Shown: piece after piece, positions 1-45,572 of the stretch | Layout: each line of letters opens with the position of its first letter | Position numbering within the stretch: position 1 is the stretch's first letter | From: a virus | Length of the DNA stretch: 64,000 bases | IMG/VR virus record: IMGVR_UViG_3300038379_000822 | Location: 1 to 64,000 of that record | Strand: one strand, 5' to 3' | Program-made: the position numbers and the translations under genes | The notes under the pieces: model-generated | The model's input: only the letters and a program-made list of their open reading frames with translations | Told to the model about the DNA's origin: nothing | The model's database searches: none

Positions 1-132
1 AAATGCTGCAGAACCCCAAGGTTCCCAGCTTCGCGAGCGGTCCCGGAACTGTGACCGGAACCCTCGCGCTCGCGCCATGGAGCTGGCGCACCATCCCCTC
101 TCGGGCCCCGCCTCGGAGGCGTCATGGTTCAT
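1..132. repeat. Left copy of a 132-bp perfect direct repeat (partner 2604..2735) bracketing the Cas12-like/CRISPR cassette; may continue left of the window
   Basis: Base-by-base comparison shows 1..132 is identical to 2604..2735. Identity ends at 133/2736. In minus sense each copy begins at the last base of the final sense codon plus the TGA stop of the gene upstream (stops at 129..131 and 2732..2734). Confidence 0.95.
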
Positions 133-1565
133 TCGGCTGCTTGCTCCCGAAGAGCAGCAGCCAGGTCCTCCTCTTGCTTGAGACGTTTGTTCCAGGTGTC
201 TGGGTTGAAGCCGCTTCGGCGCAGCATGTGCAGTGCTGCGACAAAGTCGGCTTCTCGGTGAAACGAGCATGCGCGGCAATGGAAAATGCCGGTACGCGTG
301 TTGTGTGCGGCCGTGTCCGTAACGTTGCAACGTGGACACGTGCAGGAGATGTACTCCTGTTCGATCTCGACGAGAGCAAGCTCACTCTTCTTGCATGCCC
401 AGTCAATCGCCGCTTTGAGTTGGTAGTACGGGAAGCGCGGAAGAAACCGTCGCACGTTACGATCTTCGTCCGGACCGATGCCGCCATACTGCTCGATCAC
501 GATGGACCCGCATCCTTGCAGTTTGGCGAGCTCGACCACGGCAGACGCTGCCTGCTGGCAGGCCGTCTTCACGACGCGGGCCTCGAGATCTTCGATACGA
601 CTGACCGCATCGAAGCGACGATCACGCCCATGACCTTTCGCGCCATCGCCGCGCTCATACGGCGAAACCATCCCCATGTCACGCCGGCGAGCAGCAAGGG
701 ATTGCTTCTGCGCGCGCAACTTGTTGCCGCGGATGAGCTTCCGGAAGTGGCCTTCGGTCGACATGCAAGTGATGAAGTTGTGCATCCCGCGATGCACAAC
801 CAGGGCCTTCTGCTGGTCGACGTCCTTCGCTGGCGTCTTCGGCGCGAAGACACTGAGCAGCACCATCCACTTCTTGCCGTCCTTCGTCAAGATCTTGGCT
901 CCACCCATCTCGAGCTCGCCGGCAGCGACTTGGCGAAGCAGGCTCCAGTGCGGCCCCTTCGTCGTCATCAGCGCGACCTTGATCTTGCCTTGCTTGCGAC
1001 CAGGGTCCAGCGTCATGGAGAGCACTGGCCGGTTGTCCTCGAGCGTGATGTCGAGCTCCGCGCGTCGGAGCGCGACGGGTGCCCCCTTTCCCATGGAGGG
1101 CAGCCGAGTGCTGCGACGTTCCTTCAGCCAGCGCTGCACCGACTGCTTGGCGATCTGATCCCATGCACTGACGGTACCGCCCGGAACGCCGCCCTCGATG
1201 AGGGCCGCGAACCGCTCCTTCACCTTCGCATCCTTGTGCGTGGTCACCCACTCGAGGAAGCTGTCGACCTCCATCTTGCCGGCCTCGTAACCATTGGGCT
1301 TGCGCCCGGACTGGAGTGCGTGAGCGTACTCGAGCGTCGACGCCTGGATACAGCGATGTGCCACAGCGGCGAGTCCGCGCAGCGTCGACCCGAGCTCATC
1401 CCAGGTGCGGTTGAGAGGCTTCGCGATCTCGCACGTCAGCGTGCGAGCGAGCACCTCTTTGCGCCGCTGCTCTTTCGCTTGCTTGTTGGCGAGACGGCGC
1501 TCCTTACGGATACGTGCCGCCGCCTGGTCTTCGGTCTCTGGCTGTTCCTGGGGTGCGTCGCTCAT
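129..1565 (-). CDS. Compact TnpB/Cas12-like (type V-like) RNA-guided effector candidate, 478 aa, with His258 where the RuvC-I Asp is expected
   Basis: ORF 129..1874 trimmed to ATG 1565 (GAGGAA 5-6 nt upstream); codons upstream of it are translated CRISPR repeats. TnpB/Cas12 layout: WED-like KILTKDGKKWMVLLSVF, then ALVVHRGMHNF at the xxGxDxG position, IVIEQY (Glu358), zinc ribbon CTCPRC...CRAC, READFVAALHML (Asp440). It lies directly downstream of the array on the same strand. Confidence 0.8.
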   Translation of the reverse strand: MSDAPQEQPETEDQAAARIRKERRLANKQAKEQRRKEVLARTLTCEIAKPLNRTWDELGSTLRGLAAVAHRCIQASTLEYAHALQSGRKPNGYEAGKMEVDSFLEWVTTHKDAKVKERFAALIEGGVPGGTVSAWDQIAKQSVQRWLKERRSTRLPSMGKGAPVALRRAELDITLEDNRPVLSMTLDPGRKQGKIKVALMTTKGPHWSLLRQVAAGELEMGGAKILTKDGKKWMVLLSVFAPKTPAKDVDQQKALVVHRGMHNFITCMSTEGHFRKLIRGNKLRAQKQSLAARRRDMGMVSPYERGDGAKGHGRDRRFDAVSRIEDLEARVVKTACQQAASAVVELAKLQGCGSIVIEQYGGIGPDEDRNVRRFLPRFPYYQLKAAIDWACKKSELALVEIEQEYISCTCPRCNVTDTAAHNTRTGIFHCRACSFHREADFVAALHMLRRSGFNPDTWNKRLKQEEDLAAALREQAAE

Positions 1566-1645
1566 TGTTTCCTCTTCGACGAGATCTTCATCGTGCTTCA
1601 CTGTCTCTCCGGCATCCATTGCGGCGAATGGCGCTTGCGCTTCCT

Positions 1646-2487
1646 GCTCCATCGGCTCTCCGTTGGAGCAGGCGTTGCGACGCTTGCGACCAAGCACGGC
1701 ATCGACGTAGCGAGCATGCTCCACCGGCTCTCCGTTGGAGTAGTCGTTGCGACTCCCCCCCCCCACGTACACGAAGGAGGGGCGTGCCACGACGCTCCAC
1801 CGGCTCTCCGTTGGAGTAGTCGTTGCGACCAATGAGCGCCCGACCGGAGGCTGAAGTCCCTTGCATTGCTCCACCGGCTCTCCGTTGGAGTAGTCGTTGC
1901 GACGCGCACCCGAGACTCCCGAGTCGATGGAGATGCTCGCTCCACCGGCTCTCCGTTGGAGTAGTCGTTGCGACTGCCAGGCCGCCTAGTACAGGCAGCG
2001 CCCGTGCTGCAGCTCCACCGGCTCTCCGTTGGAGTAGTCGTTGCGACCTTCCAAGAGCTGTGCCGAGAGCACGCGCTGCAGGTTGCTCCACCGGCTCTCC
2101 GTTGGAGTAGTCGTTGCGACGGGCCTGTCGATGAAGGACATCGACGTGGTGGAGCTGCTCCACCGGCTCTCCGTTGGAGTAGTCGTTGCGACTGCGCCCG
2201 CTGCTCGAGCCGGAGGACCTGTACGCGACGGCGCTCCACCGGCTCTCCGTTGGAGTAGTCGTTGCGACCCAAGAAGGGCTGACCGTGGTGATCGACGAGG
2301 GGGTCGCTCCACCGGCTCTCCGTTGGAGTAGTCGTTGCGACGCCAGCGCTCTGCTTCCGTGGGGTCCTGCGCAAAGAGGCTCCACCGGCTCTCCGTTGGA
2401 GTAGTCGTTGCGACGGTGGTTCGGCTCGCCGGCGAGCAGCGTCCCGTAGACGCTCCACCGGCTCTCCGTTGGAGTAGTCGTTGCGAC
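1646..2487 (-). CRISPR. CRISPR array: 11 identical 36-bp repeats plus one degenerate terminal repeat, 11 spacers of 35-40 bp
   Basis: Plus-strand repeat GCTCCACCGGCTCTCCGTTGGAGTAGTCGTTGCGAC starts at 1718, 1794, 1868, 1939, 2012, 2085, 2157, 2233, 2306, 2379 and 2452. A 3-mismatch copy lies at 1646..1681. All spacers are unique. The degenerate repeat is at the cas-proximal end, so the leader is inferred at 2488+ and transcription on the minus strand (repeat reads GTCGCAACGACTACTCCAACGGAGAGCCGGTGGAGC). Confidence 0.95.
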
Positions 2488-2603
2488 GGTCCTGCGAAGA
2501 CCCGTGCGGTTGCGCACGCTTGCGGACCGCTTGGCGAGCGGTCCGTGAAAACCCCCGAGGCGAGGCGCGAAAGGGCGGAGAGACGGCTTCCTGCCGAAGC
2601 AGG
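2488..2603 (-). promoter_or_regulatory. Leader-like, highly structured region upstream (minus sense) of the CRISPR array; a possible promoter/leader or small-RNA (tracr-like) locus
   Basis: Three perfect hairpins are seen: 2503..2518 (6-bp stem), 2523..2545 (8-bp stem) and 2588..2605 (7-bp stem with a 4-nt loop, UUCG in minus sense). The position is opposite the degenerate repeat. Confidence 0.4.
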
Positions 2604-2735
2604 AAATGCTGCAGAACCCCAAGGTTCCCAGCTTCGCGAGCGGTCCCGGAACTGTGACCGGAACCCTCGCGCTCGCGCCATGGAGCTGGCGCACCATCCC
2701 CTCTCGGGCCCCGCCTCGGAGGCGTCATGGTTCAT
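2604..2735. repeat. Right copy of the 132-bp perfect direct repeat (partner 1..132)
   Basis: Identical to 1..132. It overlaps the stop codon of the DUF1643 gene (2732..2734). Confidence 0.95.
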
Positions 2736-3364
2736 GAAACGGTCACCTCACTTTCACTCAAGCCGCGTTGTTGCTCGGCCTTTCCAGAGGTCTTCTTGCT
2801 CCGGGAGCGCGTCTCACGCTGCTCGAGTACACACGGCACCACCAGGGAGTCCTTGGGAAGGTACAAAGGATGCGGCGCACCGTAGTTTCCTGGCTTCGTG
2901 GGATGGCGTAGCGCCATCGGCGGTTCCAGCCCCGCCTGCTCACGTAGCTCGCGCAGCCTACGCCAGACCTGCTGGTCACGGTTCATGAATGAGCCATGCG
3001 TGCCCCCCCATGCGCACACCACGCGGTCCGCGGTGACGGCGATCACGCGCAGCCACTCGTCGTTGTCCGGGCCGACGGGATCTACCGCTGCATTCATCGC
3101 CTTGGGGTCGGTAGCGCGGAATGCGAACAGGTTGCCGCCGAGGAAGATGTCGTAACACCAGTCCCGGCAGAACCCGATGCATCGGCGAATCGTGGGATCG
3201 TTCCTCAGCTCGTCGGCCACCGAAGGGTTCAGCATAATGAAGGCGCAGACCTTCGGTGGAGTGGTCCGGAACATCTTCTGCTGCTTGATGGCGTAGCGGG
3301 AGACGGTGTACCGGTAGATCCGGTCCTCGGAGAAGCGAGTGCCGATTTCGTTGTAGGCGTTCAT
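2732..3364 (-). CDS. DUF1643-family protein
   Basis: 210-aa ORF with motifs FIMLNPSVAD, DPTIRRCIGF, NLFAFRAT, GPDND and VCAWGG, typical of DUF1643. ATGA overlap with the upstream gene at 3361..3364. Confidence 0.75.
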   Translation of the reverse strand: MNAYNEIGTRFSEDRIYRYTVSRYAIKQQKMFRTTPPKVCAFIMLNPSVADELRNDPTIRRCIGFCRDWCYDIFLGGNLFAFRATDPKAMNAAVDPVGPDNDEWLRVIAVTADRVVCAWGGTHGSFMNRDQQVWRRLRELREQAGLEPPMALRHPTKPGNYGAPHPLYLPKDSLVVPCVLEQRETRSRSKKTSGKAEQQRGLSESEVTVS

Positions 3365-3798
3365 GGCACGAGCCTTTCGTCTGCCGAGCGCCAGAGGTCC
3401 GCCCAGGTCAAGCCGTGACCGATGCGGAACCGACGCGAGCTGAACGTGACGTACTGATCTTCGGGATAGAACTGCCGCGAAGCCTCACAGTCGCACGTCG
3501 GCAAGATGTAGAAGTCGCGATCATCGGGCTCCACGACCAGTCGGCCGCAGAGCGGCCGCGGTTCATCGTTCACTTGCGGATGCATGAGCACGAAGTACGA
3601 CGGACAGGTAGCGCGGCCACCAGCCGCGACGCAGGTGCGTGGATCGTTGTGTCGCGAGCAGTCGAGCTCGGGCGCCGTGTAGCCCATGAAGCACGCATAC
3701 GAGTAGCCGGTGGCCGGCGCGTAGCGCGAGGTGCCGTTGCTCGGAGGCGCGCAGCTCACGAGCAGGAGCACGGCAAAGAGGAGCGCCATGCTCTTCAT
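3361..3798 (-). CDS. Predicted lipoprotein (145 aa)
   Basis: Internal ATG 3798 of ORF 3361..4131 overlaps the methyltransferase stop (ATGA). N-terminus MKSMALLFAVLLLVSCA is a signal peptide with an LVSC lipobox. The mature part is Cys-rich. Confidence 0.7.
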   Translation of the reverse strand: MKSMALLFAVLLLVSCAPPSNGTSRYAPATGYSYACFMGYTAPELDCSRHNDPRTCVAAGGRATCPSYFVLMHPQVNDEPRPLCGRLVVEPDDRDFYILPTCDCEASRQFYPEDQYVTFSSRRFRIGHGLTWADLWRSADERLVP

Positions 3799-5156
3799 GC
3801 TGCCTGCTCCAGGAGGTTGGCTCGTACGATGGCCGCCGCCACTTGTGGGCAAACGCTGTTGCCAGCCAGGCGCGTCTGCGCCGTCTTCGTGAACCGTTCT
3901 CCGGCTGCGTCGACATTGATCTCGTAGACCGATGGGAAGCCTTGCGCCGCGAAGAGCTCGCTCGGTTGCAGCATCCGCATGCCGATGTCGACGACCGGCA
4001 TGCCACGCACGAGTACCATGCGGGCGGCTGCTCCGGCCTGCCACGGCGAGTCGTGGCTCGAATCGCCAGCGCTCGGCACATAGTGGCCGCGCATGAAGTC
4101 GTACACCCGCTGCGCCTCGATGTCGGACCACTGGTCACGAAGAGTGGCAAGAGCGAGAGCGTGATGGTCGGTGGCCGTGATCGTACCCAGCGGTTGCCGC
4201 ACGTCGTGACCGACGACCCCGCCGTAGTGCTTCAGCACCACGGGCACCACGAGATGCTTATCGTTGGTGGCGCACACGGTCGCCAGCGGCATGTCGAGCG
4301 ACTGGCCGCGGAAGGTCCCAGCTCCGCAGCCGTCGCGGAGCCCCGCGCCGGTGATCGTCGAGTAGTGGCCATGGCGCACCAGGAACGGAGTCGGCGCATC
4401 GACCACGAAGCGATGGATGCCACGTGCTACGCGAGCGAGCGTCGCCTTGGCCAGCGAACGACGACGCCCGAAGATCGAAGGACAGGGAATCGACCAGTCG
4501 ATGATCTCCGCTGCGGAACGCCAGGACTGAGGGCGCGAGCGACCATGCGTCGCCGTTGGCCATGCCGGTCGGCGCCCATCCGCTCGCGCGACCAGGAAGA
4601 GGCGCTTGCGCGTCGTCGGTGCGCCATAGTCGGCGGCGACCAGGCTCTTCCACTCGAGGCTGTAACCGAGGCCCACCAGCGTTTGGGCCCACGCTTTGAA
4701 GTCTTCGCCTTCGCGCGTCTTGTCCGGGTGGCCATCCGCATCGAGGGGCCCCCACGTCATGAACTCCTCGACGTTCTCCACGATGATGACCCGTGGGCGC
4801 ACGTCGCGCGCCCAGTCGATGACCACGTTCGCGAGGCAGCGGAGCCCCTGGCTGCGCGGAGCCTTGCCTTTCGCGCGACTGAAGTGCGTGCAGTCCGGTG
4901 AGGCCCAGAGCAGCGCCGGCCGTTGCCGGCCGCAGACGTCCTTGGGTTGCACCTGCCAGACATCCTCGAGGAAGTGCTTCGTCTCGGGATGATTGCTGCG
5001 GTGCATGCGAATCGCATCTCGGTCGTGATTGACGGCGATGTTGACCGGGCGCCCGAGAGCCATCGCAATCCCGGTCGAGGCGCCGCCGCCGCCGGCGAAC
5101 AGGTCGATGATGAGGTCGCCGGTGGTCACCGCGTCTCTCCCTTGAGCGGCTCCCAC
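3795..5156 (-). CDS. DNA (cytosine-5)-methyltransferase
   Basis: Motifs DLFAGGGG (I), SPDCTHFS (IV), ENVEEF (VI), QGFP and GNSVCP (X). An alternative GTG start at 5129 overlaps the upstream stop (GTGA). Confidence 0.9.
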   Translation of the reverse strand: MGAAQGRDAVTTGDLIIDLFAGGGGASTGIAMALGRPVNIAVNHDRDAIRMHRSNHPETKHFLEDVWQVQPKDVCGRQRPALLWASPDCTHFSRAKGKAPRSQGLRCLANVVIDWARDVRPRVIIVENVEEFMTWGPLDADGHPDKTREGEDFKAWAQTLVGLGYSLEWKSLVAADYGAPTTRKRLFLVARADGRRPAWPTATHGRSRPQSWRSAAEIIDWSIPCPSIFGRRRSLAKATLARVARGIHRFVVDAPTPFLVRHGHYSTITGAGLRDGCGAGTFRGQSLDMPLATVCATNDKHLVVPVVLKHYGGVVGHDVRQPLGTITATDHHALALATLRDQWSDIEAQRVYDFMRGHYVPSAGDSSHDSPWQAGAAARMVLVRGMPVVDIGMRMLQPSELFAAQGFPSVYEINVDAAGERFTKTAQTRLAGNSVCPQVAAAIVRANLLEQAA

Positions 5157-5720: not shown

Positions 5721-6425
5721 TCATGGCGCGTCCATGTCGCTCACAGGCGCTTCATGGCTCGACGGCGTTCTCCAGTCGATCCATCCATGGTGACGCTGCT
5801 GCGCGCTGTCGTGGCGCCAGACGAAGACGCCGTACTCCGCATTGTCGGTGCCGCCTTCGGTGAAGCTCGGTCGTGGCCGCACCACGTACAGCCGATCGTA
5901 CGGGTGTGCATACCACCATGCCCGCCGCTTCGCTCCGCCGAGCACCGACAGCCGAAGAAGCATCGCGGTCGTGGTGCCACACCCCAGCGCCCGCGCAACG
6001 TGCTCGTGCCAGATGGGCTCCCCGTACTTCCGGCCAGGTACAGTTACAGCGAACGGCGGATTGCCCACGACCAGATTGAACTTGTCCGCGATCCGTTCGC
6101 AAGAGTCACCAAGCAGCTGGGTAGGCTCCGTCGTCAAAAAGTCACCGACCACGGATCGGTCGCACAGGGTAAGACCTGGCACCTGCGGGTTGATGTCGAC
6201 ACCGACGATGAACGATTGTTGGAAGACAGTGCGCAGCGCCTGCACGAACGAGCCACTGCCCACGCTGGGTTCCAGTACCCGCGATGGCGGGTCTGACGCG
6301 AAGAGATCGTCCTTCAGTCGACGCACAATGGCCAGCGTGAGTTCCGGCTGCGTGGTGTAGGCGTCATTGGCACGGCGCTTGTGAGCCGGCTTCTTGCGGC
6401 GTGGGGGCGTGGCTTCGGTGGTCAT
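5721..6425 (-). CDS. N6-adenine DNA methyltransferase (NPPF type)
   Basis: Motif I LEPSVGSGSF and motif IV GNPPF, with a basic N-terminus; 234 aa. Confidence 0.85.
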   Translation of the reverse strand: MTTEATPPRRKKPAHKRRANDAYTTQPELTLAIVRRLKDDLFASDPPSRVLEPSVGSGSFVQALRTVFQQSFIVGVDINPQVPGLTLCDRSVVGDFLTTEPTQLLGDSCERIADKFNLVVGNPPFAVTVPGRKYGEPIWHEHVARALGCGTTTAMLLRLSVLGGAKRRAWWYAHPYDRLYVVRPRPSFTEGGTDNAEYGVFVWRHDSAQQRHHGWIDWRTPSSHEAPVSDMDAP

Positions 6426-9889: not shown

Positions 9890-10510
9890 TCAACGCTTCT
9901 GGTGGATGGAGATCACGTTGGCGGGCTTGGTGTCGCGCACCTTCGCGTTTTGCTGTGCCGTCGCTGCAACATGTCGCAGGATGAGCACGTGGGCGATGAG
10001 CGCCGCGGACGGCCGCATGCCGTCGATCTCCGCGAGTAGGCCATGGCGCATCGCGGCGCGCACGCACGCCGCTTCGCTGTGCATGCAGGCCTCGTGCATC
10101 AGCGTAGCGGTCGGCTCCTCGAGCTGGTGGCACTGGAGCTGATGCAACGCGACCCGCGCGTCGTACACATGCGGTGACGGGAACTCGACCATCGAGCGAG
10201 GGAGGTGCTCCCACCCCAGCGCCGACAGGTCGAAGGCCGCCGCCGCGCACAGGTGCATCGGCATGCCGTGGTCGGGCCGGTCCGTGGGGACGGTGTACAC
10301 CGCTGGCACGAGAGCCGGAAACTCGCCGTGCACGACCATCCGGCCGTGCGAGAGCATCACCAGCTCCACGTAGTAGTCCGAACCCTTGACGGCCGACTCG
10401 AGCAGCAGCGAGACCCCGGACGTCGGGCGCGGGCGTAGCTTCCTCACGTCGGGCGCGAGGTGATCGATGATCTCCGTCGTGGCGGAGGCTGCGGATACCG
10501 ACTGGAGCAT
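9890..10510 (-). CDS. Hypothetical protein (206 aa)
   Basis: ATG 10510 (MLQSVSAAS...) shares a base with the methyltransferase stop (TGATG). The upstream part of the track ORF is Arg-rich shadow. Confidence 0.6.
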   Translation of the reverse strand: MLQSVSAASATTEIIDHLAPDVRKLRPRPTSGVSLLLESAVKGSDYYVELVMLSHGRMVVHGEFPALVPAVYTVPTDRPDHGMPMHLCAAAAFDLSALGWEHLPRSMVEFPSPHVYDARVALHQLQCHQLEEPTATLMHEACMHSEAACVRAAMRHGLLAEIDGMRPSAALIAHVLILRHVAATAQQNAKVRDTKPANVISIHQKR

Positions 10511-11286
10511 CAGCGCATGATCCTGACGAGGGTGGCGCCGACTTCCGTGCCGGAGCCACGGAACGTGCCCGGTTCGATGTCCCAGATGTCGACGAGGAAG
10601 CCGCGTGCGCGGGCGTCCTCGATGAAGTTCGTGAACGCCTTGCGTTGGCGGTTGGGCGCCATCAGCGCCACGAGCCTCACCGATGACACGACCGGCCCGC
10701 GCTCGAGCTGTCGCAAGAAGGCATGCTGGACGTGCTTCACGTCTTGGTTCCGCGTCCACGGCGGATTCATCACGATACGCGTGAAACCGTGACCTTCGGA
10801 CGCTTGCGGACAGCTCAGGAAGTCGCCGTGTTGCAAGAAGTGGCACCCCTTGTCGAGCAGGTGCTGACAGTTCGCAGGGTCGAGCTCGCAGACGAAGACC
10901 TTGCGGGCGCCCTCTTCACGGCACGCATCGACTAGCGCGCCACGCCCCGCGCTCGGTTCGAGCACGACGTGGCTATAGACATCCGCCAGCTTCGCCATCC
11001 TCCGTGCGAGCTCGGGCGGCGTGTAGAACTGCTGCAGCTCCTTCTTCACGTTCGTGCTCTTGCCCGTGGCAAGCGCCATCCCGAGGCGCTCTCGTGGGTC
11101 CGTCCCGAAGACATGCGCGGCTCGCGAGCGATTCCACTTGCCGCCGGCGTCGGTCAGCACCTTGTTCACCGCCACGTAGAGCGGCCTCGGTAGCTGCTCC
11201 GGAGGCAGCTTCACCTCGCGCTCGCCGATGATGCTTCGCTGAAGCACAGCCATCACCTCGGGAGCGATCGGCGTCTTGGACTTCAT
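10510..11286 (-). CDS. DNA methyltransferase (N6-adenine/N4-cytosine class, NPPW motif)
   Basis: QFYTPPELA, motif I LEPSAGRGAL and motif IV MNPPW. ATG 11286 overlaps the upstream stop (ATGA). Confidence 0.8.
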   Translation of the reverse strand: MKSKTPIAPEVMAVLQRSIIGEREVKLPPEQLPRPLYVAVNKVLTDAGGKWNRSRAAHVFGTDPRERLGMALATGKSTNVKKELQQFYTPPELARRMAKLADVYSHVVLEPSAGRGALVDACREEGARKVFVCELDPANCQHLLDKGCHFLQHGDFLSCPQASEGHGFTRIVMNPPWTRNQDVKHVQHAFLRQLERGPVVSSVRLVALMAPNRQRKAFTNFIEDARARGFLVDIWDIEPGTFRGSGTEVGATLVRIMR

Positions 11287-12044
11287 GCGTGCTGTTCCTT
11301 CTGCAACCTCGGTAGGAGGTCGACGTATGCCTCTGGCGCGTAGGCGAGTTGCTCGAAGCTCGTGCCGTGGGCGCTGGTCGCGTTGGTGTCGCGCGTCCTC
11401 CGGCAGCCGCACCGCATGCAGCACTCATCCACGACGATGCCGCCATACGTGGCCCGAACCCCCGGGTTCTCTGCGTTGCCACCGACGATCGCGAGCGGGC
11501 GCTGCCAGTCATGACCATCGTCCGCGGCGCAGGGTGGCTCGACCGGGTCGAGTACGACCGTGGTGCTCAGCTCCTCATCGGTCTCGCCGCAGTGGACGCT
11601 GACCTCGATTGCCCAAGACCGCAGCAGGTCGACCTCATCGTCTTCGGTCTCTGCCTCGTACTCGTAGTTGGCACGCGTGCCCCCCCGCGTCGCGAGCTCG
11701 AGCGCCTCTTCGGGCGAGCTGGCAGTGACGATCCAGCACCCGTCGGTATCGGTGGCGTCCCACGACCGCGGACAGTCGCTGCCGGCCAGGGCTCGCAGCG
11801 CGCGGTCCACTGCCGCATCGGCAACGTCCCATACGGCGAGGGCCGCATCTCTTCGGTTCAGGAACTCGACGTAGCGAGGGTGCTCCTCGGTGAGCTCGCC
11901 AGCTTCCTGCAGCATTTCCTCGACCGGATCCCACTCGTTCTCACAGCAGTCGATCGCATGTTGCGCCATCGCGCGCTCTGCTTCCGCCCGTACGACGGCG
12001 GCACGTAGCGGATGGATCACGGGCGTCGGGGTCTCTTCAGTCAT
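11283..12044 (-). CDS. Hypothetical protein, paralog of 22291..22986 (acidic, C-terminal Cys cluster)
   Basis: Shares SSxEEALExA...ANYE, LDPxxPPC, GHxW, GGxxxNPGV and CxxCGC with the plus-strand ORF 22291..22986. Confidence 0.7.
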   Translation of the reverse strand: MTEETPTPVIHPLRAAVVRAEAERAMAQHAIDCCENEWDPVEEMLQEAGELTEEHPRYVEFLNRRDAALAVWDVADAAVDRALRALAGSDCPRSWDATDTDGCWIVTASSPEEALELATRGGTRANYEYEAETEDDEVDLLRSWAIEVSVHCGETDEELSTTVVLDPVEPPCAADDGHDWQRPLAIVGGNAENPGVRATYGGIVVDECCMRCGCRRTRDTNATSAHGTSFEQLAYAPEAYVDLLPRLQKEQHA

Positions 12045-13282
12045 GATGATGGCTCTCCGGTAGCGATGGCGTCGACGACAGCTTGTGCCCCCGACGCCTG
12101 GGATAGATCGCCGTCGCTGACGTAAGTGTATCGCTCGGCATGGCGCCGCAGCGGATGGCCCTCCGACATGTAGGCACCGACACCTACCGAATAGAGACGG
12201 ATGCTGCGGAGCTTCAGCTCAGCCATGAAGTCGGCGAAGGGATGACCGTAGAGATCGTCGCTGTCGCCGTCCGTGATGCACACGATATCGGCGTTGTGCA
12301 CTCCCACATGCTCCCAGGCTCCGATCGCATCGGCCGCAACGCGCAGTGCCGATAGTGTCGCCGTGCCGCCATCCAGGAAGCACGCCTGCGCGTCGCGCAG
12401 AGCTTGTTGATCGCCGCGACGCAACTCGCGTTCCATGGCGAGCGTGCTGTAGTGGACGAGCTTGACCGGTCGCCGGTCGTCCCAAGCAATCTCGGTGAGC
12501 GCCGTCATGCACGCTTTCGCCCAAACATTGCGCGACCAGGTGCCGCCGCCCATCGAGCCCGACTCGTCGATCACGATGACGAGCGCCCCACGGCCACGGC
12601 GTTCGAAGCCCGCCACATCGTATTGCTCGGCGCGGCGATCCATGATGCGAGCTTGCAGTTCGGCTCGAGGCGCGCCGCCGAGAGCCCACAAAGCGAGTTC
12701 GTCCGCCGTCAGGCGCGGCACATCGCCTCCCTGGTGGATGCCCACGATCTCCTCGGGGATGTCGGGGGTGCGCGCACGCACGCGCCCCTTGAGCACCTCG
12801 CGCATGGCACCAGCGAGGTCGGCAATCGGCTTCATCTGTTCGCGAGCGGGTTGCGCCTTCGGATCGACGAGGTTGAACGATGCAGCCGTGCTGCAGCAGC
12901 CTCGCTGGTGCTGCTCCGCGCGCCACTCGTAGAACATGCGCCAGCCTGCGCTGGCGGCCTCCTCCCAGTGGTCGTTGTGCTGCGCCAGGTACGATGTGGC
13001 GGCAGTGGTCACCATCTCAGTGACGAGCGCCGCTAGCGCCTCGTTCATGGTGCACTTGACGGACAGATGGAACTCCATCTGCGCCAGGATGGCGGCGGCC
13101 AATGGATCATCCGCGAACGTCTCGCGACCGGAGATCACGTCCCACGTCTGCGCGTAGATGGCGGCGGCGCGCCGGGCGAGAAGAGCCTGGCGCGGCTGCA
13201 CTTCCGCGTACGCCCGCTGAGCGCGACGCTCCTTGGCCATGCGCTTGCGGCGCACGCCGTCGCGAGTCGGGGCCGCAGTCAT
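12041..13282 (-). CDS. von Willebrand factor A (vWA) domain protein
   Basis: MIDAS-type VIVIDESGSMGG and downstream ITDGDSDD. Coupled to the AAA+ gene (ATGA at 13279..13282). Confidence 0.85.
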   Translation of the reverse strand: MTAAPTRDGVRRKRMAKERRAQRAYAEVQPRQALLARRAAAIYAQTWDVISGRETFADDPLAAAILAQMEFHLSVKCTMNEALAALVTEMVTTAATSYLAQHNDHWEEAASAGWRMFYEWRAEQHQRGCCSTAASFNLVDPKAQPAREQMKPIADLAGAMREVLKGRVRARTPDIPEEIVGIHQGGDVPRLTADELALWALGGAPRAELQARIMDRRAEQYDVAGFERRGRGALVIVIDESGSMGGGTWSRNVWAKACMTALTEIAWDDRRPVKLVHYSTLAMERELRRGDQQALRDAQACFLDGGTATLSALRVAADAIGAWEHVGVHNADIVCITDGDSDDLYGHPFADFMAELKLRSIRLYSVGVGAYMSEGHPLRRHAERYTYVSDGDLSQASGAQAVVDAIATGEPSS

Positions 13283-14613
13283 TGATCCTTGGACCCCGAG
13301 GTGATCGACGCCGACGCCACGTAGGCAGACTTGTGCCCGTCACTGGTGAGCACCGAGTCTACGTTGAAGCGACTCACCGTCCACGCGTCGATGATCTCGT
13401 CGAGCAGTCTCGACGAGGAGCGCACCCGGCGCGCGAATCCGCGCATCCGCTCGAGGGTGCGCACAGGCAACTTCGCCTTGTCACCGAAGCGCTCGGTCAT
13501 CGTGACGCCGAAGATCTCGATGCGATTCAAGATCGCGAGCGCATCATCGTGCATACGAGTGAGGTCCAGATGGACCCGGTTCCGGTTGTTGCGGTACCGA
13601 TCATGCAGCTCTTCGACATCGCGCACCAGCTCGTCGGCCTGCACCTCGAACTCTGCAGCAATGGAGCGAGGCAGCAGCTTGAGCACAGCTTCGACGATGG
13701 CCTCCTCGTGCGGAGCGTTCCAGAGGACGTGCCGCAGCACGTCGAGATCGTCGACGTCAGCGTCGGTGAAACCAGCGTACCAGGCTGCGGCCTTCACCAT
13801 CTTGACCGCCTTCCCGATCGTGCGATCGGAGACGGGGCAGCCTCCCTTGCGGCACCCGTCCTGCACCGTGATGAGGTACTCGAGAACGGGATCCGAAACC
13901 CGGACGCGTTCGATCTCCGCGTGTGCAGCCGCGAGCTCATCCACGTGGATGGGTTCCAAGCGCGACCACACGTCGCCCCAGCCGGACTCGATGCCCTGCA
14001 GGAATGCGAGCCGTGGGCCTTTGCCCTCGATGTAGTCGACGGTGTGACCGATCAAGAAGCGATCGCGCAACGCGTTGAGCGAGTCGTCCTCCTGCCACTC
14101 GTTGGATGCGCCGAAGCACGTAATGAGCGGGCTCGTGATGCTGCCCTTCACCGTGCGCTCGTTCAGCCAGGCCAGCATGGCGTTGAGCGTCGAGCCCGAC
14201 GACTTGAACACCTCGTCGGCGAACGCCACGTGCGCCGCCGTAAGATGGTCATCCGTGATCCAGCGCTCCTTGCCGACCATGAGGTCGGGGATGGATCGCG
14301 TGGCGATGACGTCGCTCTCGGTCGTCTGCCGCGTCATCAGGTACTCGGCAAAGATGCCGCCCTTGATCTGCATGCAGATGACACGAGCCAGCGCGCTCTT
14401 GCCGGTGCCGGGCGGCCCGACCCACACGGCGTGCTCACGCGCCGCCAGCGCGAGCTGGCTCGTGTAGATGATGTCATCGCGCTCAACGAAGACGGAGCCG
14501 ATCAGCTCCGCGTTGTGCTGGAGTCGCTCGCGCACAGATCGCGGCTGTGGCGCGGGGGAGATGTCGGGATCGAAGTCGGTCATGGTTCTCTCGTGAGCGG
14601 CTGCGGAACGCAT
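13279..14613 (-). CDS. AAA+ ATPase (MoxR/RavA-like, AAA_5 type)
   Basis: Walker A GPPGTGKS, Walker B VAFADEVFK and sensor region FGASNEW; 444 aa. Confidence 0.9.
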   Translation of the reverse strand: MRSAAAHERTMTDFDPDISPAPQPRSVRERLQHNAELIGSVFVERDDIIYTSQLALAAREHAVWVGPPGTGKSALARVICMQIKGGIFAEYLMTRQTTESDVIATRSIPDLMVGKERWITDDHLTAAHVAFADEVFKSSGSTLNAMLAWLNERTVKGSITSPLITCFGASNEWQEDDSLNALRDRFLIGHTVDYIEGKGPRLAFLQGIESGWGDVWSRLEPIHVDELAAAHAEIERVRVSDPVLEYLITVQDGCRKGGCPVSDRTIGKAVKMVKAAAWYAGFTDADVDDLDVLRHVLWNAPHEEAIVEAVLKLLPRSIAAEFEVQADELVRDVEELHDRYRNNRNRVHLDLTRMHDDALAILNRIEIFGVTMTERFGDKAKLPVRTLERMRGFARRVRSSSRLLDEIIDAWTVSRFNVDSVLTSDGHKSAYVASASITSGSKDQ

Positions 14614-17161: not shown

Positions 17162-18052
17162 CTAGCATGACGAGGTCGTCTTTCCGTCGTTGGCCAGCTC
17201 GGTGAGCAGCGCCGCGAACCTTTCGCGCATGCCGTCGGGACAGGTTGCGGCGTAGACGACGGAGGCGGCGGCGTTGGCGCCGGAGGCGGCGGAGGCGTCT
17301 GCGTAGGCGTCTGCGTTGGCGGCGTTGGCGGCGTCCGCGCGGGCGGCGGTGACGGCGGCGTTGGCGGCGGCGTTGGCGGCGGCATTGGCGGCGGCGTTGG
17401 CGGCGGCGTTGGCGGCGGCATTGGCGGCGGCGTTGGCGGCGTTGGCGGCGGCGTTGGCGGCGGCGTTGGCGGCGGCATTGGCGGCGGCGTTGGCGGCGGC
17501 GTTGGCGGCGGCGTTGGCGGCGTTGGCGGCGTTGGCGAGGGCGTTGGCGAACGCGTTGGTGGCGCTGGCGGCGCTGGCGGCGCTGGCGGCGCTGGCGGCG
17601 CTGGCGGCGGCAGCGGCGGCAGCGGCGGCAGCGGCGGCAGCGGCGTCGTCGGCGGTCTTACGGTCGACGACCGTGGGCAGCGCCCGCAGTCGCTTGGCAT
17701 CCTGCTCTCGCCCCGCAGCATCCAGCGCCATCGCAGCCGCCACGCGGACCGCGAAATCGACGAGTCGATAGGCGCGTTGCTGTTCAACGGCGCGATCGCG
17801 GCGCGATCCGACCAGTGCGACCGAGACCGGCCCCATGATCCGCGTCCGCGTGGCGTCATCGTGGATTCGATCGTTCAGAAACCGCGCTGCTGCGGCGAGC
17901 AGCGGGCATGCGCACTTTGGATGGTCGCTATGCGGTTCGCCGGCGAGCCACGCCGTTACCTCGAGGGCGCACATGCCCTCCTCATGGGTCTTGTGTGAGC
18001 CGGACGCGATCGTGATGCCCGCGACGCGGGCGAGTAGGTCTTCGCGATTCAT
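17162..18052 (-). CDS. Paralog family P member 1: conserved N-domain (EGMCAxE..AGExHSDxPxCxCP) plus a long Ala/Asn/Ser tandem-repeat region
   Basis: ATG 18052 (MNREDLL...) is preceded by GGAGAA. HEEGMCALEVTAWLAGEPHSDHPKCACPLLAAAARFLND aligns with the ORFs at 18072, 24078, 24985 and 25608. The centre is (AANA)n, (AAS)n and poly-Ala. Confidence 0.75.
   Translation of the reverse strand: MNREDLLARVAGITIASGSHKTHEEGMCALEVTAWLAGEPHSDHPKCACPLLAAAARFLNDRIHDDATRTRIMGPVSVALVGSRRDRAVEQQRAYRLVDFAVRVAAAMALDAAGREQDAKRLRALPTVVDRKTADDAAAAAAAAAAAAAASAASAASAASAASATNAFANALANAANAANAAANAAANAAANAAANAAANAAANAANAAANAAANAAANAAANAAANAAANAAVTAARADAANAANADAYADASAASGANAAASVVYAATCPDGMRERFAALLTELANDGKTTSSC
17355..17645. 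repeat. Coding tandem repeats (12-nt GCGGCGTTGGCG units, then 9-nt GCGCTGGCG x5, then 9-nt CAGCGGCGG x4)
   Basis: Read directly in 17341..17650. They encode ...AANAAANAA..., ASAASAAS and poly-Ala in the minus-frame gene. Confidence 0.9.
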
Positions 18053-19057: not shown

Positions 19058-19713
19058 GGCTTCTCCGGGGGCGATGGGGTGAGCGCGAGCGCGAGAATGC
19101 GCACGACGCGTAGATCTTGTTCGGCGGGCCAGCATTCGTCTGGCGGCCATTCTGCGTTGAGAGCGAAGAGCGGCGTCGAGTCGCCGGTGGCGACGAGGAC
19201 GTTCACGGCGTCCTCGATCGCTGCTCGCGTGTCTTCCGACGGCGCGAACCCGATGCGCCGTCCACGAAGCCGCTCACGCAGGGCGGCGTGGCCACCGAGT
19301 GCGAGAAAGAACGTGTCGAGCGCGACAGCGAGGGAGCAGACGAAGCAATCCGTGTCCGCGCAGTCGCGGATCCAGCGCTCGCACGTCTCAACGCTCGCTC
19401 CACCGAAGTGTTCCGGTCGGCATCGTATCGCTCGGATGTCGGGCTGATCGCAGAGGGCGACGAACGCGCCGCTCTGCTGCGTGAGGCGGCGCTTCGCGAC
19501 GGATAGTTGGACCGGATGCGCGCCCCGCTCACCGCAGACGGCGTGCTGGATGAGCGCATCGAGGTAGTCGGTGGCCGACCATGCCAGGAGCGCGGGCCAG
19601 TCTTCTCCTGGCAGGTAGTGAGCCCGCACCCCATGAAGGGACGGGGTCGGCTGCCGCGGGGTAGGCGCCATGAACGGCACCGTCGCGGGTTGTTCGGGGG
19701 CCATGGGGTTCAC
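19054..19713 (-). CDS. Hypothetical protein (219 aa, GTG start)
   Basis: GTG 19713 overlaps the upstream stop (GTGA). Cys/Trp-containing, balanced composition. Confidence 0.6.
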   Translation of the reverse strand: MNPMAPEQPATVPFMAPTPRQPTPSLHGVRAHYLPGEDWPALLAWSATDYLDALIQHAVCGERGAHPVQLSVAKRRLTQQSGAFVALCDQPDIRAIRCRPEHFGGASVETCERWIRDCADTDCFVCSLAVALDTFFLALGGHAALRERLRGRRIGFAPSEDTRAAIEDAVNVLVATGDSTPLFALNAEWPPDECWPAEQDLRVVRILALALTPSPPEKP

Positions 19714-24988: not shown

Positions 24989-25611
24989 ACACCGACGACA
25001 TCATCATCCTGCACGGCAAGCACGCGACGCGTGAGGAGGGCATGTGCGCGATGGAGCTGGTGGCCTACCTCGCGGGCGAGGTGCACAGCGATCGTCCGCA
25101 TTGCGCATGCCCGGTGCTGGCTGAGGCGGCGCGCGTGCTGAACGATCTCATCGACAACGACGCTGACCGAACGCGGATCATGCGTCCCGTCGCCGAGGCG
25201 CTGGTGGGTTCGCGCCGCGACGCTGCAACGGCGCAGCGCCGTGCGTACCGGCTCGCCGACTTCGCCGTCCGCGTGGCGGCGCCTGCGGCGCTCGACGCCG
25301 CGGGGCGTGCGGAGAATGCGGCGCAACTGCGAGCAGTATCGCCGATCGTCGACCCGGATACCGCAAGAACTGCGTGTGACGCCGCCTACGCCTACGCCTA
25401 CGCCGCCACCGCCGCCACCGCCGCCACCGCCGCCACCGACGTCGCCGCCATCAACGCCGCCATCGCCGCCACCTACGCCACCAACGCCACCGACGTCGCC
25501 GCCATCAACGCCGCCATCGCCGCCATCAACGCCGCCATCGCCGCCAACGCCGCCGGCATGCGCAAAGAACTCGCTTCGCTCATCATCGAGCTGGCCAAGG
25601 AGGAAACGTGA
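24985..25611 (+). CDS. Paralog family P member 4; likely non-canonical CTG start (the track ORF starts at ATG 25042)
   Basis: The in-frame sequence upstream of ATG 25042 reads LNTDDIIILHGKHATREEG, homologous to the N-termini of members 1 and 5. The only plausible start is CTG 24985, 4 nt after AAGGAGG, overlapping the previous TGA (CTGA). Confidence 0.65.
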   Translation: MNTDDIIILHGKHATREEGMCAMELVAYLAGEVHSDRPHCACPVLAEAARVLNDLIDNDADRTRIMRPVAEALVGSRRDAATAQRRAYRLADFAVRVAAPAALDAAGRAENAAQLRAVSPIVDPDTARTACDAAYAYAYAATAATAATAATDVAAINAAIAATYATNATDVAAINAAIAAINAAIAANAAGMRKELASLIIELAKEET

Positions 25612-42079: not shown

Positions 42080-43685
42080 TCGGCGGGGCGGCTCGAGCAC
42101 TGAGTCTCGCCGCGCTCGGCTCGAAGCGGCGGTGGTGTTCATGCTGCTTTGCTCGGCACAGGCGCCGGGAGGTCGAGCCCGAGGAAACGGCGCACTCCGT
42201 CACGGGTGCCGAGCGGATTGGCGCAGAGGAAGCGGAGCTTGAGGAAGAGGTGGTCGTGGTCCCGGTACCCACGGCCGCGACGGACCAAGGCTTCCCAGTT
42301 GTTGTTGAGGGCTTCGAGGCGGCCGGTCTTCGGGCGGAGTCGCACGAGGGCGAGGATGCCGTCCCAGTGAGCCAAGAGGCTGTCATGCAGCTTGCGCATC
42401 GGCTGGTTGGCGCGCCTCGCAGTGGCGCGGAGGATGTGATGCATCGCCGTTCCGAGTTCGGCGGCGCGCCGCAGCTTGAGCGCGTCACGCAGAGCCTCCA
42501 CGGTCTGGTAGGCGCGAGCGAGCTTACCGTTGCTGGCGACGAAGAGGGCTCGCAGCTGCTTGCGCTCGGGCTCGGCGAGGCGCGCCCAAGGTCGCAGCAA
42601 CAACCATCGCGCACCACGACCGAGGCCGCGGAGCTCAGCGCCGCCGCGGAAGAAGAGTTCGCGACGCAGTTCGCTGAGCGCTTCACCCGCGCGTTTCATG
42701 ATGTGGAAGGGGTCGTGCACGTAGGCCGCATGGGCGAGGTCCGGCTCCTCACGAATCGCCTTCTTGAAGGGCGCGTACATGTCGGACGCAACGAGCCGCA
42801 CGCGCCGCTTCTGCTTCTTGGTGAGCGTCGCGAGCCACTGCTTCACCGTCTCGGCGTCGCGACCGCGTCCCATCCAGACGGGCTCGCCAGTCTCGAGATC
42901 ACTCACCAGCGTGACGAAGCGCTCCGCGAGGCGGTTGCGTCGGCCGAGCCACTTCTCGTCGAGGCCGACGTGGCGAAGCGGCGGTCGAGGCGTCGACCGG
43001 TCCCAGCGCTCGAGCGCTGCCCGCTCCGCGCGCCTCACCGCATGCCAGTCCACTTCGTGCGCTGCGGCCACGTGGGAGAGCGGTGCCGACGCCGCCTCGA
43101 AGGCAAGCTGCTGCTGAAAAGCTCGGGTCGTTCGCTGCTTCGCGTCCGCCCAAGGCAGCAGCTCCGTGCACGAGCTCCCGCACTGCTTGCACCGGTACCG
43201 CGCCGCCGCGTACTCGATGCTCGCTGGATGACCGCGCAGCGGCAGCTCCTGCCACTGTCGGGGAGGGCGCCGCTCGTGGCACCGCGACTCCGGGACCAGA
43301 GCCCTGCAGTGCCCGCAGCGGGCCGCCCACCGGCGCCGCAACGTGATGACCAGCCGCGCCGACCGCGGCGCCGGCAGCATCGGCCCTACCTCGAGCTCGC
43401 GCCCGTCCGAGCCGACCCACCGGCAGCCCACCACTTTCCACCCCACGTAACCCGCTACCTCGTTCAGAATCCGCAGGCGCTGTCCCATCTCGGCCCTCTC
43501 CTCGGTGCTCAAGAACAACGAGAAGAAGCCACCGCACTTCGGCGGTGTCGATGGGGCAGCGCGCTCACCCGCCGACGCCCACGAACTCAAGCCAACCGAG
43601 CGAGATCAGCCGAGTTCGCGCCGACCCCGATTCGCCCGAAGAGCGGAAAACATCTTCTCGGCGCTCAGTGGTCGCGGTCAGGTTG
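42080..43685 (-). mobile_element. ISL3-family insertion sequence (boundaries approximate)
   Basis: Contains the transposase gene. The candidate imperfect terminal inverted repeats are GCTCGAGCACTGAG (about 42091..42104) and CTCAGTGGTCGCGG (about 43664..43677). No clean target duplication was found by eye. Confidence 0.5.
42139..43488 (-). CDS. ISL3-family DDE transposase (449 aa)
   Basis: N-terminal zinc-finger CGHC...CKQCG, HVGLDEKWLGRRN..FVTLVSDLETGEPVW, VASDMYAPFKKAI, VHDPFHIMKR, and C-terminal TGRLEALNNNWEALVRRGRGYRD. ATG 43488. Confidence 0.85.
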   Translation of the reverse strand: MGQRLRILNEVAGYVGWKVVGCRWVGSDGRELEVGPMLPAPRSARLVITLRRRWAARCGHCRALVPESRCHERRPPRQWQELPLRGHPASIEYAAARYRCKQCGSSCTELLPWADAKQRTTRAFQQQLAFEAASAPLSHVAAAHEVDWHAVRRAERAALERWDRSTPRPPLRHVGLDEKWLGRRNRLAERFVTLVSDLETGEPVWMGRGRDAETVKQWLATLTKKQKRRVRLVASDMYAPFKKAIREEPDLAHAAYVHDPFHIMKRAGEALSELRRELFFRGGAELRGLGRGARWLLLRPWARLAEPERKQLRALFVASNGKLARAYQTVEALRDALKLRRAAELGTAMHHILRATARRANQPMRKLHDSLLAHWDGILALVRLRPKTGRLEALNNNWEALVRRGRGYRDHDHLFLKLRFLCANPLGTRDGVRRFLGLDLPAPVPSKAA

Positions 43686-45126: not shown

Positions 45127-45572
45127 GCAGCACGTCGTGGTCATCGCTAGTGAAGCAGGTGAGTCAGCCAGATGACGCATTGCGCGTGAGCGTCTCGGGC
45201 GAGTTCCGGTTCCACGTCTTTCGCGAAGGTCTGATCGTTGAGGATCAGCACTTCGCCTGCGAAGTGCACTTCTACACGAGCTGCTTCGCGGGGCACAGCT
45301 GCTCCCAGCAGACTAGCATCAGCGAGTGGTTCTACTGTTCGCTCTGGCGCGAACTCTACCCGGAGCCGCTTGCTGTGGGGCGTCAGACGCTGCCTGGGTA
45401 CCGGCTTCGCGACAGCGACATGCTGTTGCAGCTTGCGCAAGGCATTGCCGCACGGCCGGAGGATGTGACGTTCCTGAACGTATGCCTCATCGGGGATCCG
45501 AGTTTCACGCGTGCATTCAAAGAACTCGTTTATGACTGCAGGCGCGAGAACCGGCACGCTCAGCGCACCTGA
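45123..45572 (+). CDS. Hypothetical protein (149 aa), last gene of the rightward block
   Basis: ATGA overlap. Its 3' end overlaps the convergent giant ORF by 13 nt. Confidence 0.6.
   Translation: MSSTSWSSLVKQVSQPDDALRVSVSGEFRFHVFREGLIVEDQHFACEVHFYTSCFAGHSCSQQTSISEWFYCSLWRELYPEPLAVGRQTLPGYRLRDSDMLLQLAQGIAARPEDVTFLNVCLIGDPSFTRAFKELVYDCRRENRHAQRT

Follow-up and report, generated by a model that had tools for sequence, protein, structure and literature searches.

The closest described relatives of the system reported here are AsCas12f1 and the other CRISPR-Cas systems of type V-F1, formerly V-U3, in which no adaptation proteins are encoded and a putative trans-activating CRISPR RNA (tracrRNA) lies between the effector gene and the array (Karvelis et al. 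2020, PMC7229846). Both the Cas12f family and naturally nuclease-dead Cas12f proteins (dCas12f) are already known, the latter being truncated proteins, encoded on chromosomes and associated with sigma factors (PMC13472631). RuvC activity has been lost repeatedly within type V, where binding-only effectors are found in V-C, V-M and other subtypes (PMC12669027). We examined a stretch of 64,000 nucleotides (positions 1 to 64,000 of the IMG/VR virus record IMGVR_UViG_3300038379_000822), referred to below as the window, at one end of which a Cas12f-like effector gene, a CRISPR array and a predicted tracrRNA gene form a compact locus. Our preferred reading, to which we give a probability of about 0.6, is of a Cas12f system that depends on a tracrRNA and serves a mobile element against its competitors, with an effector that binds DNA without canonical cutting.

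The locus has much in common with AsCas12f1 and type V-F1 (PMC7229846; PDB 8J12, 8DZJ and 7WJU). Shared features include the size of the effector, its WED/REC/RuvC/zinc-ribbon fold, the GHGRxRR and YxSxxCPxC motifs, the absence of cas1, cas2 and cas4, 36-bp repeats with spacers of about 36 bp, and an array-adjacent tracrRNA predicted to form a pseudoknot with the 3' end of the repeat and to carry a second anti-repeat. However, the present effector is only about 21% identical to AsCas12f1, has a His in place of the Asp of RuvC motif I and begins with a basic N-terminal helix of about 40 amino acids. Type V-F1 systems are found on the chromosomes of Clostridia or Bacilli, whereas this locus and its relatives are found on viral or mobile elements of high G+C content; here the array also precedes the gene, the tracrRNA gene is partly duplicated, and the relatives carry a gene for a coiled-coil partner.

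The effector gene lies on the minus strand (129..1565), from an ATG at 1565 to a stop codon at 129-131, and encodes 478 amino acids. A Pfam scan of the protein returned the Cas12f1-like_TNB zinc ribbon and nothing else, while PADLOC models aligned over residues 40-444 (Cas12u3, E 1.6e-40; Cas12f, E 2e-38). AsCas12f was found by phmmer among PDB sequences (E 1.6e-27) and, with a profile built from 23 homologues, over the whole length (E 2e-56). An AlphaFold model built on an alignment of homologues had a mean predicted local distance difference test score (pLDDT) of 88.2. A Foldseek comparison of this model with Cas12 and TnpB structures, as the original prediction had proposed, returned a Cas12f fold with AsCas12f first (E 7e-27), followed by OsCas12f, SpCas12f1, CnCas12f1 and Un1Cas12f1 and then by natural dCas12f and TnpB. 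The dCas12f match (9N9C, E 7e-17) was weaker than that to AsCas12f. Cas12m, Cas12g, Cas12k and Cas12j ranked far lower, with Cas12m at about 1e-11 against 1e-27 for Cas12f and CasPhi-2 in 43rd place. By sequence profiles and by its predicted fold, the effector is a member of the Cas12f family with AsCas12f (type V-F1, former V-U3) as its nearest described relative. An IS200/IS605 TnpB transposon was considered and ruled out by the multi-spacer array, by NCBIfam scores below cut-off (guided_TnpB, 86 bits against 100; IS200_TnpB, 16 against 425) and by the failure of the Pfam scan to find TnpA among the window's open reading frames (ORFs).

The original prediction had described a type V system without adaptation genes, of Cas12f/TnpB size and carried on a mobile element, and in this it was right. 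It had also recognized the C-terminal layout of TnpB/Cas12 proteins, namely the RuvC-II Glu (E358), the zinc ribbon (C410/C413 and C430/C433) and the RuvC-III Asp (D440). What it overlooked was the substitution in RuvC motif I, the tracrRNA, and the identity of the flanking repeat as part of the tracrRNA.

Instead of the intact D-E-D RuvC triad expected for Cas12f1, the effector has an H258/E358/D440 triad. In the profile alignment V-H258-R-G of the effector faces I-D-L-G of AsCas12f, which holds the Asp of RuvC motif I; the Glu of motif II and the Asp of motif III are matched by E358 and D440. The AlphaFold model puts all three residues in the places expected: His258 closes the first RuvC strand at its C-terminal end, E358 is found where the fourth strand ends, and D440 opens the last helix. 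A search of 1.8 billion representative proteins gave 920 matches at E <1e-3 and 95 at <1e-30, the nearest relative being 45% identical, and 143 full-length relatives were aligned. At motif I these have His (97 proteins), Arg (27), Asn (9), Asp (5), Leu (3) or Lys (2), so that a residue other than Asp occupies the position in 138 of 143. The five with Asp are the most distant matches and have canonical GIDLG-type motifs. Motif II is Glu in 120 relatives, Asp in 8, Gly in 7 and another residue in 8; motif III is Asp in 130, Glu in 10 and another residue in 3. R259 and G260, beside His258, are nearly invariant, and the four Cys of the zinc ribbon are kept in 140-141 of the 143. Judged by these alignments, the whole clade lacks the first catalytic Asp and keeps the remainder of the RuvC domain. 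Since relatives have Arg, Asn, Lys or Leu at motif I, this position probably no longer binds metal. Conversely, the conservation of His, E358 and D440 suggests that the RuvC pocket still functions in some way. The literature searched held no account of a full-length, virus-borne Cas12f clade with an H/R/N-E-D site; the survey of Al-Shayeb et al. (2022) lay outside that search, and the clade may have been catalogued earlier.

The second main feature of the locus is the predicted tracrRNA gene. An exact direct repeat of 132 bp brackets the system (1-132 = 2604-2735), as the original prediction had noted, and it makes up the 5' two-thirds of a predicted and conserved tracrRNA gene. When the 250 nt upstream of the array were aligned with the corresponding regions of related loci, the mean column identity with L012 and L013 (related contigs are designated L and a number) was about 75%, whereas the proteins encoded there were only 34-36% identical. 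The conserved block spans the 132-bp repeat and about 40 nt beyond it, and RNAalifold folded it into a multi-helix structure with compensatory changes. A covariance model trained on four loci (R1) marks a core of five helices at 2567..2698 on the minus strand (127 bits) and finds copies outside its training set in L011, L002/L010 and L014/L092. It also finds a truncated copy at 1-95 of the window (92.5 bits) whose 3' end is cut off. In alignment A8, 96.4% of cells were paired and 21 of 30 pairs had changed on both sides, a level equaled by none of 500 shuffles and compared with 30-46% pairing in slid controls, although these counts are inflated because A8 was fitted to the R1 model. Between the core and the array (2488..2566, minus strand) lies the 3' tail of the tracrRNA region or an array leader, with two conserved hairpins, including ACCGCUCGCCAAGCGGU, shared with L012 and L013 (alignments A2 and A3).

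Two segments of the predicted tracrRNA are complementary to the CRISPR repeat. One is the second hairpin's loop (GCUCCAU, 2680..2686, minus strand), which complements GUGGAGC, the final 7 nt of the repeat, and is predicted to form with it a pseudoknot, the first repeat:anti-repeat duplex. The equivalent loop complements the final 5-7 nt of the local repeat in all seven independent loci compared (the window, L002, L004, L011, L012, L013 and L014), and loop and repeat covary: L002 has CUCCG with a repeat ending ...CGGAG, and L014 has CCCGAU with ...GUCGGG. The second anti-repeat, GCCGUCUCUCCG (2576..2587, minus strand), complements nt 20-31 of the repeat except at a single position, and its equivalents complement nt ~18-32 of the local repeat in the same seven loci. 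A pseudoknot together with a second anti-repeat is an arrangement described for Cas12-family guide RNAs. The 3' stem that had been proposed within the repeat itself (CUCCA...UGGAG) does exist as a hairpin, but it is specific to this locus and is not conserved in the relatives; what is conserved is the base-pairing between the tracrRNA loop and the ...GGAG at the 3' end of the repeat. A loose pattern for the tracrRNA stem matched more than 100 loci, mostly unrelated and of high G+C content, and true copies were separated from these by R1 alone. One match, in L095, has no cas12f close by and is probably due to chance. The 132-bp repeat was also considered as an integron-like attC site, a reading given up because the repeat is homologous to the tracrRNA of other loci; an Rfam scan of positions 1-3000 found no relevant family.

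The array occupies 1645..2487 on the minus strand and comprises 12 repeats and 11 spacers. Read on the plus strand, the 36-bp unit GCTCCACCGGCTCTCCGTTGGAGTAGTCGTTGCGAC is present in 11 exact copies between 1718 and 2487 (starting at 1718, 1794, 1868, 1939, 2012, 2085, 2157, 2233, 2306, 2379 and 2452), and a twelfth, degenerate copy occupies 1645-1680. No two of the 11 spacers, which are 35-40 bp long, are alike. The sequence thus bears out the array as originally reported, with 11 identical repeats, one degenerate repeat and 11 unique spacers, and the inferred transcript sense of the repeat (GTCGCAACG...) was correct as well. Because the degenerate repeat sits at the cas12f-proximal end, the leader is placed on the 2488 side. 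Array and effector gene are on the same strand, as stated in the original prediction, and 79 nt, not 81, separate the degenerate repeat from the start codon. By complementarity and by reading of the sequence, this junction (1566..1644, minus strand) contains a thirteenth, heavily decayed repeat at about 1594-1630, with a plus strand complementary to the repeat (-35 kcal/mol), and a ribosome-binding site, GAGGA, 6 nt 5' of the cas12f ATG. The order of parts on the minus strand is tracrRNA, 11-spacer array, cas12f.

Each copy of the 132-bp repeat starts at a stop codon, that of cas12f for copy 1 and that of the DUF1643 gene for copy 2. Copy 1 (1..132, minus strand) corresponds to the 5' part of another tracrRNA-like copy, as indicated by its identity to 2604-2735 and the R1 match at 1-95, and it is clipped where the window, and probably the contig too, begins. 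In the complete tracrRNA gene, the 5' two-thirds are provided by copy 2 (2604..2735, minus strand). The DUF1643 gene (2732..3364, minus strand; Pfam E 6e-34) is the upstream neighbor, lies outside the system and marks its boundary. No match to the Cas1, Cas2 or Cas4 Pfam families was found among the 67 ORFs of the whole 64 kb, which extends to the entire window the earlier observation that such genes are missing between the bracketing repeats.

The nearest homologues of the effector are encoded in contigs of 16-298 kb that also carry portal, terminase, Mu-F, DnaB, integrase and HNH genes, and in eight IMG/VR contigs. The clade is viral, its other members being carried by large viral contigs with mini-arrays and, in contigs of 44-298 kb, lying beside portal, terminase and DnaB genes. 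All 10 related loci examined have arrays, with a period of 72-74 bp, and in the closer relatives the repeats, read in gene sense, start with GTCG(C/T)... and end in ...GGAG. The order of parts differs among the relatives: L004 has the gene followed by the tracrRNA and the array, L012 and L013 have a partner gene between gene and tracrRNA as well, and in L002/L010 the tracrRNA comes first, ahead of the gene and then the array. Homologue calls of 557 and 558 amino acids in L002 (8001-8243) and L004 (9348-9677) appear to run across the tracrRNA, at the N-terminal end in L002 and the C-terminal end in L004. These long forms are probably annotation artefacts, since homology spans just the central 430-440 codons.

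A partner gene lies next to the effector gene in 9 of 10 related viral loci (L013:1951-2532; L012:5358-5927; L011:5527-6153; L015:4788-5423; L016:4716-5417; L002:9829-10422; L004:~10329-10841; L014:~3291-3827). Its product of about 190-230 amino acids has a conserved N-terminal region and a leucine-zipper-like coiled coil at its C-terminus, and has no Pfam or PHROG match other than a weak one to PHROG 3671, by the coiled coil of the L002 copy.

Taking the family placement, the array, the substituted active site, and the structure and repeat complementarity of the tracrRNA as established, we infer the following course for transcription, processing, dimerization, DNA binding, loss of cleavage and biological targets. 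The tracrRNA, array and cas12f would probably be transcribed as a single unit from just past the DUF1643 gene. The tracrRNA would pair with each repeat twice, through the GCUCCAU loop with the 3' end (the pseudoknot) and through the downstream anti-repeat with nt 20-31, and host RNases would trim the repeat:anti-repeat duplex. On the model of solved Cas12f structures, the effector would load the dual RNA as a dimer and seek spacer-matching DNA flanked by a protospacer-adjacent motif. Two-metal cleavage has probably been lost or altered, since motif I is His258 here and His, Arg, Asn, Lys or Leu in the relatives. Tight RNA-guided binding would then most likely block transcription or replication of competing elements, as with Cas12m or Cas12c; alternatively, the effector may recruit a partner. 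The predicted interference by RNA-guided binding without target cutting is shared with Cas12m (V-M), Cas12c (V-C) and Cas12k (V-K), as is carriage on mobile elements and, for Cas12m, small size. However, these are other Cas12 lineages: Cas12m and Cas12c retain the D-E-D triad intact, and Cas12k operates together with Tn7 proteins, whereas no transposition genes are linked to the present locus. Virus-borne, compact systems without adaptation genes and with a presumed use against competitors are also known in Cas12j/Cas-phi, Cas-lambda, the Cas12p 'hacker' and Cas12r, none of which has specific sequence or fold affinity to this effector. Cas12p repeats end in AAAC and the protein requires thioredoxin; both the Cas12p hacker and myxophage Cas12m were compared in the literature and are different systems.

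Several observations weigh against the binding-only interpretation or leave it less secure. E358 and D440 are strongly conserved and His is the majority residue at motif I, while a dead site would be expected to drift more; a residual or other catalytic role, such as RNA processing or His-assisted chemistry, is possible. The partner gene is absent from the window by both tblastn and a profile hidden Markov model, and this locus may be incomplete or may work unlike its relatives. A simple scan for promoters and terminators found neither, no protospacer was found for any spacer tested, and the inflation of the A8 pairing counts has to be borne in mind. The same conservation of E358 and D440 would suit an ordinary, active Cas12f nuclease in which His258 or another residue replaces the Asp and target DNA is cut as by AsCas12f, as would His in 97 of 143 relatives and the near-invariant R259 and G260, which point to selection on the site. 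In its favor, too, the whole C-terminal zinc ribbon and lid region are kept, unlike in the truncated natural dCas12f proteins (PMC13472631). We nevertheless find active cutting, the main rival to our reading, doubtful, since 41 of the 143 relatives have Arg, Asn, Lys or Leu at motif I, none of which offers Asp-like metal coordination, and 7 have Gly at motif II; nor does an H-E-D triad occur in any characterized Cas12 or TnpB nuclease within the literature searched. A substituted RuvC site on an element that manipulates its host might instead indicate an RNA-guided regulator, with guides that bind host or own promoters and reprogramme expression and with no role in immunity or competition. Nuclease-dead TnpB and Cas12f homologues are known to regulate, some of them with CRISPR arrays, and TldR, dCas12f-sigmaE and the array-linked dCas12f of Chitinophagaceae (Hoffmann et al. 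2026, PMC13472631; Wiegand et al.) resemble the present system in their natural RuvC mutations and, in some cases, in a position beside a CRISPR array with a structured guide scaffold upstream of it. Those proteins, however, are encoded on Bacteroidota chromosomes, are truncated at the C-terminus with loss of motif III, work with sigma-factor or helix-turn-helix partners and one or a few fixed guides, and have no tracrRNA. The effector here has its full C-terminus with E358 and D440, its 11 spacers differ from one another and show turnover in the population, none of them matches the window or the related loci, no sigma-factor or helix-turn-helix partner was seen, and no sigma-factor Pfam match was found in the window. 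Regulation in place of immunity is accordingly improbable. We give still less credence to the suggestion in the original prediction of an undescribed type V subtype, with a repeat start resembling those of Cas12j/CasPhi. Identity to solved Cas12f proteins is about 20-25% at most and the guided_TnpB score falls below its cut-off, and to these points the likeness of the repeat start to Cas-phi repeats can be added. Against this, Cas12u3 and Cas12f profiles and the fold match the protein end to end, with AsCas12f at the top of the Foldseek ranking; together with the published V-U3 layout (PMC7229846), this places the system in an already named subtype with the same architecture. The match to Cas-phi-3 had an E-value of 0.52 and covered the zinc ribbon alone. 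Moreover, Cas12j requires no tracrRNA, while the architecture here is tracrRNA-dependent, and this reading is highly improbable.

The layout, as distinct from the function, has its own alternative, in which the bracketing repeat and the array-before-gene order stem from assembly, the true order is cas12f, tracrRNA, array, and the repeat is a cycle in the assembly graph. At 132 bp the repeat exceeds typical assembly k-mers, so joins across it are, we infer, assembler choices that k-mers leave unproven. One contig (L136, sample 3300043259) equals window positions 1-2560 exactly and has the same starting base, and a 24.7-kb IMG/VR contig from that sample (L009) again starts at this base, with 127 nt in common with the window. 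The shared first base, at the outer end of the 132-bp repeat (window 1, L136:2560, L009:1; at least two assemblies), may mark either a physical end of the DNA or a point where the assembly graph branches. Two other contigs, L008 (sample 3300043259) and L007 (SRR12687280), are 100% identical on the DUF1643 side and stop within the repeat. L001 (sample 3300043242), of 2,476 bp, overlaps itself by 94 nt at its ends, so that a circular path of 2,382 bp results, and reads cas12f, 132-bp repeat, leader, array; it lacks window spacers 6-8, so that the array varies within the population. An order of gene, tracrRNA and array is also seen in L004, L012 and L013, and that of L002/L010 is tracrRNA, gene, array. 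However, the junction of the last repeat with the cas12f start is present in three assemblies, and a chimera by way of the 36-bp repeats is impossible. The DUF1643-repeat, cas12f-repeat and repeat-leader junctions were each seen directly, and hence at least two genomic copies of the repeat must exist, or three if L009 is counted. An assembly origin is thus rather unlikely. The repeat follows three different genes, and the sole continuation seen past it is the array leader; its core was absent from JGI metagenome contigs and, in IMG/VR, was found only in L009. Past the shared 127 nt, L009 continues with an unrelated 208-aa gene, a methyltransferase gene and an endolysin-like gene (1651-3333, minus strand; Amidase_2 and peptidoglycan-binding domain), which lies 1.5 kb from the shared repeat and is the sole clear phage-function gene linked to the exact repeat. 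The data fit any of three arrangements: a second, partial tracrRNA copy followed by other sequence, a tandem or circular cassette, or a cassette at a DNA end.

Returning to the preferred reading of a tracrRNA-dependent Cas12f system that binds without canonical cutting, a more speculative extension can be offered, which we regard as tentative and more probably wrong than right. Here the clade would be a virus-specific Cas12f branch without canonical cutting (H/R/N-E-D) that silences rivals or host genes by RNA-guided binding, mostly with the coiled-coil partner. In the window, the cassette between the tracrRNA-segment copies would loop out or move by recombination, with L001 as a circular or tandem form; alternatively, it would occupy a physical end of a genome that is linear. 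If the clade does bind without cutting, it would represent a further independent loss of cleavage in type V, in viruses and within the smallest effector family (about 440-480 amino acids); it would show the use of CRISPR by phages against competitors without adaptation genes, and could provide a very compact, naturally nuclease-free DNA-binding scaffold. If the H-E-D site does cut DNA, its RuvC chemistry would be unusual. The predicted tracrRNA is directly testable; its five helices, its pseudoknot loop and the second of its anti-repeats all covary with the repeat. The duplicated tracrRNA segment is a concrete example of a CRISPR RNA gene serving as a recombination or assembly breakpoint, which bears on how metagenome loci are read.

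We also looked for the targets of the array. None of the 11 spacers matched the window or any related locus retrieved. No protospacer was found for spacers 11, 9 and 7 in viral contigs (IMG/VR), for spacer 9 in GTDB genomes, for spacer 10 in JGI metagenome contigs, or with the locus among INPHARED phages, to which neither the window nor the locus had a megablast or blastn match. The exact CRISPR repeat was found in neither viral contigs nor GTDB genomes, and for this reason no host array could be identified. Our impression is that several spacers look like high-G+C coding sequence.

Finally, a Pfam scan of the 67 ORFs in the window identified 19 families in total, with no virion genes among them. 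The original description of the surroundings as a phage-like element holds in so far as the relatives and a sibling contig are viral, but it finds no virion gene in the window to support it. A phage-like nature is plausible, and the window is part of a mobile, most likely viral genome. The neighbors had been named as methyltransferases, DUF1643 and other phage-accessory genes, and the DUF1643 gene and three DNA methyltransferase genes (one of them C5-cytosine) were confirmed, along with a MoxR-type AAA ATPase/VWA pair. The CRISPR cassette adjoins these methyltransferase and MoxR/VWA genes (3795-5156, 5721-6425, 10510-11424 and 12041-14613), a setting that suggests a counter-defense region. Other genes in the window encode ThyX, proteins with DnaJ, RyR and phosphatase domains, and glycosyltransferases. 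An ORF of 1,369 amino acids (45560-49669, minus strand) has a Phage_integrase (tyrosine-recombinase) domain at residues ~208-506 only and adjoins an ISL3-family transposase gene (42139-43590, minus strand); the protein is unusual as an integrase and could be relevant to the ends or the integration of the element. Long, GC-rich tandem repeats of short period are present at 17247-17655 and 25379-25559, with units GGCGGCGGCGTT and CGCCGCCAC..., and probably encode low-complexity Gly/Ala- or Pro-rich protein segments. The window also contains a lone tRNA-Val gene with anticodon CAC (19171-19253, plus strand).

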